Positions 4,948 through 5,629 of a DNA stretch of 5,679 nucleotides are shown here, piece after piece. The stretch is from a virus. The stretch lies in IMG/VR virus record IMGVR_UViG_3300045988_010678, positions 1 through 5,679 of that record, one strand, 5' to 3'. Every line of letters starts with the position of its first letter. The stretch's first letter is position 1. Both the position numbers and the translations under genes were made by a program. The notes beneath the pieces are model-generated. The model saw nothing but the letters and a program-made list of their open reading frames with translations, was not told where the DNA came from and made no database searches.

Positions 4948-4984
4948 GAACACTTCTGTGCTGTTTAACTATTTGTTTTGTATC

Positions 4985-5015
4985 AAAAAAAAGGGGGATT
5001 GTCAACCCCCTTTTT
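4985..5015 (-). terminator. Rho-independent (potentially bidirectional) terminator ending the Cys-rich gene cassette
   Basis: The structure is A8 (4985-4992), GGGGG (4993-4997), an 8-nt loop, CCCCC (5006-5010) and T5 (5011-5015). On the minus strand the hairpin is followed by T8. The gene's stop codon (5002-5004) lies in the loop. Confidence 0.75.
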
Positions 5016-5184
5016 CCGGTCTTTTATTTCGTTCGTCGAGTTCCTTTTTGATTTCTTCGTATACGTATCTGCAACGTTTTCCTTCGACTTTGCATGGGCA
5101 GCTCTCACAATCCCCTTCACAATATTCGTATCTGTACTTCATGTAGATTAACTGTTTGTTACTTGTAAACCGTAAACTAGTCAT
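5002..5184 (-). CDS. 60-aa cysteine-rich hypothetical protein (C-x3-C-x2-C-x-C-x6-C, basic/acidic helical tail)
   Basis: ATG start preceded by AAGGAG with a 7-nt spacer. The sequence is MTSLRFTSNKQLIYMKYRYEYCEGDCESCPCKVEGKRCRYVYEEIKKELDERNKRPEKGG. The gene has its own upstream promoter candidate and its own downstream terminator. Confidence 0.75.
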   Translation of the reverse strand: MTSLRFTSNKQLIYMKYRYEYCEGDCESCPCKVEGKRCRYVYEEIKKELDERNKRPEKGG

Positions 5185-5214
5185 ATTGGTTCTCCTTTAC
5201 TGTGAAGCAGCTTG

Positions 5215-5243
5215 ATTGTACCGTATTTTTAGAAGAAAGTCGA
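5215..5243 (-). promoter_or_regulatory. Putative sigma70-type promoter for the Cys-rich gene
   Basis: On the minus strand: TCGACT (complement of 5238-5243), a 17-nt spacer, then TACAAT (complement of 5215-5220). The -10 element lies about 30 nt upstream of the ATG at 5184. Confidence 0.4.
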
Positions 5244-5284
5244 GATTTTTTTGAAAAAAAGTTAGAAGAATTTTGCATTGAAGG

Positions 5285-5322
5285 TCATGCGCTAGGCGCG
5301 GTGCGCCGTACGAAGAGCATGA
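5285..5322. repeat. GC-rich nested inverted repeat in the non-coding region
   Basis: The outer arms are tcatgc (5285-5290) and gcatga (5317-5322). The inner hairpin is ggcgc (5295-5299) pairing with gcgcc (5303-5307), with a 3-nt loop. Confidence 0.6.
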
Positions 5323-5360
5323 TGTAACTTTCCGGCCAGCTGCCGAACTGCCTCTAATTG

Positions 5361-5538
5361 AGTTTTCAACACTTTCAACACTTTCAACAGGTTTTCCACA
5401 AAAAGTTGCACAAATGGTTTTGTGCATATTGCTACACTTTCAACAATTCAACAAGTTTTCAACAAAGTTTTCAACATCAAAATGATTCATAAAATATTGT
5501 TCCATGGATAAAAATTTATAGTTTTCAACATTTCAACA
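5361..5538 (+). repeat. Iteron-like array of nine same-orientation TTCAACA copies, with a tenth at 5628-5634 (equivalent to 4-10)
   Basis: TTCAACA starts at 5365, 5374, 5383, 5439, 5447, 5458, 5470, 5524 and 5532. There is a perfect 9-nt tandem tttcaacac/tttcaacac/tttcaacag at 5364-5390. The 11-mer AGTTTTCAACA occurs at 5361, 5454, 5466 and 5520. The variant GGTTTTCCACA is at 5390-5400. Confidence 0.9.
5407..5426. other. Small perfect hairpin within the iteron region
   Basis: tgcacaaa (5407-5414) pairs with tttgtgca (5419-5426), with a 4-nt loop tggt. Confidence 0.6.
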
Positions 5539-5583
5539 CTCCCTACTACTGCTACTACAACAAGTAAATAATAAAATAATAAA

Positions 5584-5629
5584 AATCGTTCGTGCGCGTG
5601 CGCGATTTCGTGCGCGTGCGCGAACGATT
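5584..5629. repeat. GC-rich composite element: a tandem 17-nt direct repeat that also forms an imperfect 21-position inverted repeat
   Basis: ttcgtgcgcgtgcgcga occurs at 5589-5605 and 5607-5623. Each copy contains (CGTGCG)2CG, which is strictly alternating pyrimidine/purine. The outer arms aatcgttcg (5584-5592) and cgaacgatt (5621-5629) are perfectly complementary. The element is flanked by AT-rich tracts at 5562-5583 and 5631-5644. Confidence 0.9.

Follow-up and report, generated by a model that had tools for sequence, protein, structure and literature searches.

A small cysteine-rich gene shared with tailed phages occupies a gene-exchange slot in a gokushovirus-like microvirus

ORF60, a gene encoding a cysteine-rich protein of 60 amino acids, occupies a gene-exchange slot of a gokushovirus-like microvirus, located between an origin-side element and the main operon. 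The gene is dispensable and variably present among related genomes. It is nevertheless a genuine gene under purifying selection, and its family spans ssDNA microviruses and dsDNA phages.

The analysed stretch of DNA (hereafter the window) comprises 5679 bases of a gokushovirus-like microvirus in which every gene lies on the minus strand; all features described below are on this strand. In GenBank, the window is closest to gut Microviridae and Gokushovirinae recorded from human and pig faeces, at 80-84% identity. The genes identified were VP4/Rep (1092-73), VP2 (1941-1093), VP1 (3662-1983; Phage_F, E = 2e-146), the VP3 scaffold (4186-3659), VP5 (4352-4116), a basic 39-aa peptide (4579-4460), a 75-aa ORF (ORF75; 4790-4563) and ORF60 (5184-5002). 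The main operon has the order ORF37, ORF75, ORF39, VP5, VP3 and VP1. No integrase or lysogeny gene was seen in the ORF list or the profile scans of the window, and a comparison of the window with Rfam gave no credible match. The microvirus core families (Phage_F, Chlamy_scaf, Phage_ORF5, REP_ORF2-G2P and the basic DNA-binding peptide) matched other ORFs of the window and did not match ORF60. Hence, ORF60 is none of VP1-VP5 or VP8 as judged by the Pfam and PHROG core families, as had been proposed in an earlier reading of this DNA from its sequence alone (the sequence-only reading).

ORF60 runs from ATG at 5184-5182 to TGA at 5004-5002 and encodes the 60-aa protein MTSLRFTSNKQLIYMKYRYEYCEGDCESCPCKVEGKRCRYVYEEIKKELDERNKRPEKGG. 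A Shine-Dalgarno motif, AAGGAG (5197-5192), precedes its start codon with a spacer of 7 nt, and was kept as AAGGAG or AAGGAA at homologous loci. Together with ORF60 and this motif, the TCGACT-17-TACAAT element and the GC hairpin with its run of T that the sequence-only reading had described were all recovered at their places on the minus strand, and so were the five cysteines within 17 residues (C22, C26, C29, C31 and C38). The base composition of ORF60 differed from that of the surrounding genome (GC of 39.3% versus 47.5%, and GC3 of 0.41 versus 0.52-0.67 in the core genes), a difference that is indicative only, because the sequence is short. An antisense ORF of 57 aa (4978-5151) was rejected as a true gene, as conservation tracks the minus-strand frame.

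We collected 35 related loci and mapped in each of them an origin-side element, CGCACCGCGCCTAGCGCATGA, the gene for a 64-aa protein, ORF60, and the downstream ORF37 and ORF75. The CGCACCGCGCCTAGCGCATGA element (5285-5305) is part of a small stem-loop and marks the upstream boundary of the slot, where homology with the relatives resumes. It was found with at most two mismatches in 31 of the 35 loci, including distant ones. The content of the slot varied strongly between these loci. It was empty in L024, L029, L032, L033/34 and L038, where the distance from the element to ORF37 was 137-183 nt. Others contained the 64-aa gene alone (L001, L027, L028, L030, L035 and L037), ORF60 alone (the window, L012, L015/26, L016, L013, L018 and L019) or both genes (L003, L004/5, L006-8, L009, L010/11, L014/23 and L017). 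Different genes were present in L031 and L036, and a third gene was present in L007. The survey of relatives at this locus that the sequence-only reading had suggested thus retrieved homologues of ORF60 in a slot of changing content. Retrieval of loci via ORF75, which is unbiased with respect to ORF60, yielded 16 loci, one of them cut off at the slot; ORF60 was present in only two of the other 15.

Two pairwise comparisons delimit the exchanged segment. Alignment of the empty-slot locus L038 with the window breaks off at about 5254 and resumes at about 5013; this natural indel nearly matches the span 5002-5243 given in the sequence-only reading. In MG945657, the closest GenBank relative, homology with the window extended up to 5005 and resumed at 5280; an unrelated stretch of 277 nt, encoding a different 64-aa protein, replaced window positions 5006-5279. 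ORF60 is therefore an extra gene between elements that are adjacent in the empty-slot relatives, as is expected of a moron.

Upstream of ORF60, the putative accessory-slot promoter (P_acc; 5215-5243) would consist of TCGACT (5243-5238), a 17-nt spacer and TACAAT (5220-5215), with 9 of 12 matches. Within the window this element did not rise above chance in the promoter scan, which counted six promoter-like matches versus 5.8 ± 2.3 in shuffled sequences. The match is thus statistically uninformative by itself, and support must come from the relatives. A promoter-like element was conserved at the same position in at least 15 related genomes, usually in the stronger form TTGACT-17-TGnTACAAT, which has an extended -10 box. 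The slot of the relatives opens with this form or with TTGACA-17-TATAAT, followed by a conserved leader and by whichever gene comes first. The copy in the window is a weakened one, with TCGACT as its first hexamer and without the TG. This pattern suggests that the promoter, presumably of the sigma-70/sigmaA type, belongs to the slot and drives whichever gene or genes are present. The sequence-only reading had attributed to ORF60 a promoter of its own; a conserved promoter-like element does precede the gene, but it appears to be a property of the slot, where ORF60 is usually the second gene.

At loci with two genes, ORF60 came second and its ATG overlapped the end of the 64-aa gene (ATGACTAG). 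A full-length 64-aa gene that ends in the sequence found as a scar in the window, and overlaps the start of ORF60, was present in L003, L004, L009, L010, L014 and L017. The window retains about 38 nt of this gene (5214-5177), the 3' end encoding ...SCFTVKENQYD and the stop codon. This remnant is fused directly to the -10 box and holds the ribosome-binding site of ORF60. L015, L016 and L012 show deletions of independent origin, with breakpoints that differ, and L016 has lost the slot promoter entirely. The monocistronic cassette of the window is hence the product of a deletion inside an older two-gene module. The ancestor of this lineage probably carried two overlapping slot genes, the 64-aa gene followed by ORF60. 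When the 64-aa gene was deleted in the window, ORF60 came to follow the slot promoter immediately, in what would be a monocistronic unit of some 220 nt.

Downstream, the end of ORF60 coincides with an intrinsic-terminator hairpin (4985-5017), which comprises a run of A followed by GGGGG (5010-5006), the loop TTGACAAT, CCCCC (4997-4993) and eight T (4992-4985). The RNA of the segment GGGGG TTGACAA TCCCCC with the subsequent T8 has a calculated free energy of -16.9 kcal/mol (z = -2.4). The 5' arm includes the last two Gly codons of ORF60 and the loop includes its TGA stop codon, in line with the sequence-only reading that the stem encodes the last residues. Among 23 relatives, both sides of the stem changed at five of the eight pairs. 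Covarying cells numbered 34, versus 15 ± 4 in shuffles and 2-11 in slid controls. The stem variants were GGGGG/CCCCC, GAGGGA/TCCCTC, GAGGGC/GCCCTC, CAGGGC/GCCCTG, GAGGC/GCCTC and GAGA/TCTC. Hairpin and T-tract were jointly lost in L004, L007, L017, L018 and L030; because loss of the stem is accompanied by loss of the T-tract, an RNA terminator fits better than a hairpin that acts in DNA only. Termination of the slot transcripts is the most likely role of the hairpin and T-tract as judged from these patterns. For the hairpin, an additional or alternative role in the packaged ssDNA is conceivable, such as that of a signal for priming the complementary strand.

The hairpin and T-tract were also present in relatives with an empty slot, and the hairpin was absent in four loci that do carry ORF60 (L004, L007, L017 and L018). 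It is therefore a feature of the viral backbone. The loop of the hairpin holds a candidate -35 box of the next transcription unit. This putative main-operon promoter (4977-5005) overlaps the terminator. Its TTGACA (5005-5000) sits in the loop and overlaps the stop codon of ORF60, its 17-nt spacer consists mostly of the T-tract, and TGaTACAAA (4985-4977) includes the -10 box at 4982-4977. In the 23 relatives the loop motif TTGAC(A/G) was nearly invariant (TTG invariant, the next AC at least 90% conserved). A -10 box of the form TATAAC, TATACT or TACAAA, often preceded by TG, followed it after 17-18 nt, irrespective of the content of the slot. The last base of this -10 box is non-canonical (TACAAA, TATAAC), and the promoter scan of the window did not call the putative promoter. 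Loop TTGACA, T-tract and TGnTAcAAa together look like the promoter of the main operon. At the sequence level, the arrangement has the layout of a promoter-coupled terminator, with a -35 box in the stem-loop, the T-tract as spacer and a -10 box directly after it. In L015, a change from TTGACA to TTGCCA removes the stop codon of ORF60 and extends the protein by eight residues.

The sequence-only reading had described ORF60 as an autonomous, moron-like cassette. Its moron-like part holds in several respects, since the gene is optional, compositionally distinct and horizontally spread, and is located ahead of the core operon with a putative promoter before it and a terminator-type hairpin after it. 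The autonomy does not hold, because the terminator and, apparently, the promoter are shared fixtures of backbone and slot. In particular, the terminator that had been assigned to ORF60 occurs in empty slots too and carries what looks like the -35 box of the operon that follows.

Homology searches placed ORF60 in a family of its own. A first search retrieved six clusters of homologues with 63-90% identity, all on contigs of microvirus size and with all five cysteines invariant. A HMMER scan of 1.84 billion representatives yielded 10 additional, more distant members, and a profile search expanded the family to 51 clusters encoding proteins of 49-99 aa. In an alignment of 49 sequences, C26, C29 and C38 were invariant, whereas C22, C31, P30, L12, Y17, E48, L49 and R52 were at least 90% conserved. 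One member (P0052) lacked the segment C22-D25 and yet retained C31. No frameshift was found among 14 genomic copies of ORF60. Neither frame disruption nor loss of cysteine conservation, which the sequence-only reading had named as observations that would speak against it, was thus encountered in these copies and sequences. The median pairwise dN/dS was 0.24 (62 pairs). In view of the 51 clusters, the conserved cysteines and this low ratio, a chance ORF was rejected.

ORF60 could be a decaying neutral passenger, the functionless remnant of the older two-gene module, in which case the finding would shrink to an ordinary small hypothetical gene. The deleted upstream partner, the weakened promoter of the window (TCGACT, TG lost) and the many relatives that have lost ORF60 would all suit such a decay, and so would a dN/dS of about 1 or higher among the closest relatives. 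The closest pairs differed by 0-3 synonymous versus 9-12 non-synonymous substitutions, which are too few to test for positive selection; this excess suggests that recent constraint outside the core has been weak or diversifying. However, frame, start codon and ribosome-binding site were intact across the copies of ORF60, the cysteines were conserved, and the long-range dN/dS was 0.07-0.5. Furthermore, a packaging-constrained ssDNA genome of 5.7 kb should purge useless DNA fast, and the clean deletions in relatives show that it can. We therefore regard a functionless passenger as very unlikely.

AlphaFold2, run with an alignment of 49 sequences, predicted a helix (residues 9-21), a loop with the cysteines (22-37) and a second helix (38-54), with a pLDDT of 77.9. 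All cysteines were placed in one loop in the AlphaFold model, and no known zinc-finger fold was matched. The codons of the cysteine cluster (residues 22-38; 5071-5121) encode the spacing C-x3-C-x2-C-x-C-x6-C, a putative metal-binding loop between two helices. Database searches gave no relatives of known function. Neither ORF60 nor its homologues reached the threshold of any family in Pfam, PHROGs, NCBIfam or PADLOC, and sequence and profile searches of the PDB with ORF60 returned only cysteine matches at chance level. Foldseek searches of the PDB with two ORF60 models gave nothing below E = 3, and the sole match in BFVD was a homologue of ORF60 with the spurious automatic name 'Hui1'. The ORF60 of the window did not match the Pfam families DUF5417 and FeoB_associated. 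Nine of the 49 family members had sub-threshold matches to these families, covering only 12-19 residues of the cysteine motif. The 10 members that were scanned singly reached at most 14.7 bits (best E-value 0.001), compared to Pfam cut-offs of 23.9 and 27 bits. The profile searches and structure prediction that had been proposed for the 60 residues thus gave no known family or fold, and a predicted order of helix, cysteine loop and helix.

No signal peptide, hydrophobic segment or leader/core architecture was found in ORF60. A protein that lacks a signal peptide is expected to be cytoplasmic, which makes a disulfide knot unlikely, and a secreted disulfide knot was rejected for this reason. Four to five cysteines in one loop, with the above spacing and without a signal peptide, indicate a cytoplasmic metal site. 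Of the two kinds of domain offered by the sequence-only reading, the metal-binding one is thus favoured and the disulfide-knotted one is unlikely. According to the structural model, ORF60 is a helical hairpin with a Cys4(5) knuckle as its turn; a metal ion is most likely bound there. Zinc is the most probable metal, with an Fe-S cluster as a less likely alternative.

The dense Cys/Asp motif of the loop also occurred in cellular proteins. It was shared with small proteins from Clostridia MAGs, as 11 residues in a scan of genome contigs and as 10 residues (CDGDCESCPC) in the tblastn matches, and was sometimes tandem in these proteins. They were not counted as homologues of ORF60, because hhalign profile-profile alignment covered 11 columns only, and their relatives bore no names. 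This motif, together with automatic labels on homologues that suggest toxin- or inhibitor-like cysteine-rich folds, might point to an exported or modified peptide: a toxin or bacteriocin with a disulfide knot, or the precursor of a RiPP that a radical-SAM enzyme of the host would mature. However, those labels ('Hui1', 'Kunitz' and 'polyferredoxin') contradict each other and stem from sub-threshold cysteine matches, and the 11 aligned columns are all that connects ORF60 to the cellular proteins. Moreover, both flanking helices are conserved, no maturase or exporter was found near ORF60, and the features of an exported or leader-bearing peptide are lacking. An exported peptide is hence extremely improbable.

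Homologues of ORF60 were also found outside the microviruses. Contigs of about 15.5 kb that resemble phi29, with a protein-primed DNA polymerase B, a phi29-type connector and an SPP1-type holin, carried a homologue as the third gene of their left-end early operon, behind a TTGACA-17-TATAAT promoter. On a tailed-phage contig of 59 kb, a homologue was located in a cluster of small genes, and the same stretch contained ANT/pRha, Mrr-like, LPD11, DnaB and Lar genes. In tblastn searches, the 64-aa gene and the other slot genes had no homologues in the dsDNA-phage loci; ORF60 alone was shared. Two microvirus copies (P0025 and P0018) were 71-73% identical to tailed-phage copies and 48-49% identical to the ORF60 of the window, and P0025 was located on a divergent microvirus (L019) with 52% VP1 identity. 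These copies are nearer to those of tailed phages than to the window's, which implies that ORF60 has moved between phage types. Judging from the strong ribosome-binding sites, the sigmaA-type promoters and the phi29-like carriers, the phages with ORF60 probably infect Firmicutes.

This distribution bears on the target of the protein. The sequence-only reading had considered a regulator acting on the adjacent iterons, which may be stated more broadly as a small zinc-finger regulator directed at the phage itself, acting on the iteron/origin region or on the overlapping promoter-terminator as a switch of replication or of the main operon. Small Cys4 proteins are often nucleic-acid binders. The repeat-rich non-coding region and the conserved origin-side element lie directly upstream of ORF60, which would be transcribed ahead of the main operon. 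In addition, the ORF60 protein of the window is mildly basic (pI 8.6), so that this copy might bind DNA or RNA. The family, in contrast, is acidic (median pI 5.5, minimum 4.3), and no helix-turn-helix, ribbon-helix-helix or known zinc-finger fold was matched by ORF60. Most close relatives keep the non-coding elements and the main promoter and yet lack ORF60, and homologues occur in the phi29-like and 59-kb tailed-phage contigs, where tblastn found no microvirus slot genes. Because the gene is missing in most relatives, present in unrelated dsDNA phages that lack these elements, and belongs to a mostly acidic family, regulation of the iterons is disfavoured, and we consider a phage-directed regulator of any of these kinds quite unlikely.

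Since the family is acidic to neutral, dispensable, and also found in phi29-like and larger tailed phages, in their early or accessory regions, we infer a host or competitor protein as the target. ORF60 would thus bind such a protein early in infection, rather than the DNA of the phage, in host takeover, anti-defence or exclusion. The gene neighbours of the homologues weakly suggest an anti-defence role.

A more specific version holds that ORF60, expressed from its own promoter, is a superinfection-exclusion or inter-phage competition factor against related microviruses or against phages of the same host. This would agree with its variable presence among co-circulating close relatives, with the richness of the closest pairs in non-synonymous changes, and with its occurrence in different phage types that possibly share hosts. 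Microviruses carry exclusion determinants in a hypervariable region of the pilot protein, according to Kirchberger et al. 2021 as cited in PMC9239249. This known microviral determinant, however, is part of VP2 and not a separate gene, and the substitution counts are too small for a test of positive selection. Moreover, the window phage lacks an integrase or lysogeny module, so that a standing exclusion function would be of less obvious benefit. Exclusion as the specific function is accordingly unlikely.

Our preferred explanation combines several steps: a gene in an accessory slot encodes a metal-stabilised helical hairpin, and this hairpin attaches early in infection to a protein of the host or of a competitor. 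In the window, a slot with its own promoter would express ORF60, and the backbone hairpin with its T-tract would end the slot transcripts and start the main operon as a promoter-coupled terminator. We lean towards this chain as a whole. Confidence is far higher for the reality of the gene and the architecture of the slot than for the whole chain, and lower for the target. A bolder version, in which ORF60 represents a new family of small metal-binding proteins that shuttles between ssDNA microviruses and dsDNA tailed phages of gut Firmicutes, disabling a host defence or seizing a host machine early in infection from within a dedicated plug-in slot, is a tentative and rather doubtful proposal.

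Under this bolder version, the plug-in slot, with its slot promoter and promoter-coupled terminator, would let a microvirus of 5-6 kb gain, swap or lose genes while the core operon remains undisturbed. In the human gut, microviruses rank among the most abundant phages. The locus offers a way to test gene flow across virus realms and what may be a compact natural example of a promoter-coupled terminator. With its 60 residues, ORF60 is a candidate host-interaction factor small enough for direct biochemistry and for genetics with synthetic microvirus genomes. Three aspects are new: an accessory slot resolved in a microvirus lineage, including its alternative occupants and the scars of deletions; the apparent overlap of the end of a gene, a terminator and the next promoter; and a small cysteine-rich family common to ssDNA and dsDNA phages. 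A literature search on cysteine-rich or moron-type genes in Microviridae returned nothing specific.

Morons, as reportedly described by Hendrix and colleagues for lambdoid phages, are extra genes with their own promoter and terminator, located between genes that are adjacent in relatives. ORF60 resembles the morons of tailed phages in being extra and dispensable, at a position that close relatives leave unoccupied, and in having a GC content below that of the core genes. Likewise, it has a promoter-like element upstream and a hairpin with a T-tract downstream, and homologues across unrelated phages. Unlike in morons, promoter and terminator seem to belong to the locus or the backbone, and the slot holds alternative genes and two-gene combinations. 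The lysogenic conversion by prophage-expressed morons is, furthermore, inapplicable to an ssDNA microvirus of 5.7 kb without evident lysogeny.

Small accessory proteins of about 65 aa and unknown function have been reported from microviruses (Kirchberger, Martinez and Ochman 2022, mBio, PMC9239249). [quoted passage not shown] ORF60 resembles these small proteins in that it is in the same size class, equally without an assigned role and patchily distributed, and now and then links divergent lineages of microviruses. In contrast to these proteins and to the reported isolation, the ORF60 family also occurs in phi29-like and 59-kb tailed-phage contigs. Our comparison goes beyond the survey in resolving the architecture of the slot, with its putative promoter, apparent coupled terminator and deletion scars.

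Promoter-coupled terminators, in which the stem-loop holds the -35 box, the T-tract is the spacer and the -10 box follows directly, have been described in bacterial chromosomes and tested experimentally (Fletcher et al. 2026, bioRxiv 10.64898/2026.08.19.745784). Window positions 5017-4977 have this layout. Unlike the cases of Fletcher et al., ours is a putative one, drawn from sequence and comparison, and is located in a phage genome; its hairpin, moreover, extends over the final codons of ORF60 and the stop.

For the protein itself, the WhiB-like Fe-S proteins and the DksA/TraR-type zinc proteins offer a comparison; both are small metal-binding regulators with four cysteines that bind proteins. 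By analogy, ORF60, which is likewise small, predicted to be largely helical and built around four conserved cysteines, may plausibly bind a protein as well. It differs from both groups in having no sequence or fold match to them and in its cysteine spacing, C-x3-C-x2-C-(x-C)-x6-C.

In the related locus L038, the variable accessory slot that holds ORF60 (the gene for the 60-aa Cys-rich protein) in the window is empty. Comparison of this locus (positions ~570-600) with window positions 5254-5013 placed the deletion joint at TTGAC. It looks as if the entire content of the slot was lost through microhomology between two -35 boxes, TTGACT in the slot promoter and TTGACA in the putative main promoter. 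At the end of the ORF60 homologue in L015/L026 (IMGVR_UViG_3300022758_000104), TTGACA in the hairpin loop was replaced by TTGCCA, which removes the stop codon, extends the homologue by 8 residues and also weakens the putative -35 box. This single change shows a triple overlap of coding, predicted terminator and putative promoter signals.

The window also retains the 3' end of another accessory gene, encoding a basic 64-aa protein (5214-5177, minus strand), of which complete copies are present in relatives. The gene is intact in L003, L004, L009, L010, L014 and L017, and also in the closest GenBank relative, MG945657, where it occurs alone. Searches of Pfam, PHROG and PADLOC gave no matches to this gene, and no homologue was found in the dsDNA-phage loci that carry ORF60 homologues. 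Other occupants of the slot encode proteins of 65 aa (MRKPRLSENTIGKLEIYGH...) and 59 aa (MKQKEYKFLAKISYKDGKEE...); a 3' remnant of the gene for the former persists in genomes classed as 'empty'. A family match was sought for both proteins and found for neither. These observations come from the slots of L031 and L036, the remnants in L024 and L029, and positions 126-305 of L007.

The upstream edge of the slot is marked by a strongly conserved element, CATGC...GGCGC-ACC-GCGCC...GCATG (about 5317-5281, minus strand). Its 21-nt core was recovered with at most two mismatches in 31 of the 35 related loci, including divergent microviruses. The element is a candidate stem-loop of an origin or single-strand origin; its folding energy, taken alone, was unexceptional (z = -0.8). 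The non-coding region contains TTTCAACA-type repeats, described as iterons in the sequence-only reading, and a GC-rich repeat or palindrome (two copies of cgtgcgcgtgcgcga), at 5350-5540 and 5587-5626. Parts of this region are conserved, at 75-90% identity, across many gut gokushoviruses that are divergent elsewhere (hits H9-H20).

A conserved small gene of ~34 codons (LTLQEIKTLFDNIQKILAMLDKIYHAVTENEPEA*; 4896-4792, minus strand), found in every related locus checked, separates the putative main promoter from ORF75, the 75-aa ORF of the main operon. It is absent from ORF lists because the only in-frame start of the window copy is a CTG, located 7 nt downstream of GAGGTG. Other copies contain an in-frame GTG (L010 and L012) or ATG (MG945136), and the sequence differences among its copies look synonymous. 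Directly past VP1 and ahead of VP2, the strongest terminator-like hairpin of the whole window (1972-1950, minus strand) combines nine pairs, eight of them GC, with a T-rich tail, which suggests that the genome has a second transcriptional boundary here.

The CDGDCESCPC motif of the ORF60 protein recurs, often twice in tandem, in small acidic proteins of 73-91 aa encoded by Clostridia MAGs (Oscillospiraceae and Acutalibacteraceae; L021 5804-6025, L022 5361-5636, and L020). These proteins, likewise uncharacterised, share only 11 alignable columns with the ORF60 family of phages, and their genes have a gene for a Dam-like methyltransferase on one side and an AbrB/MazE-like gene on the other.
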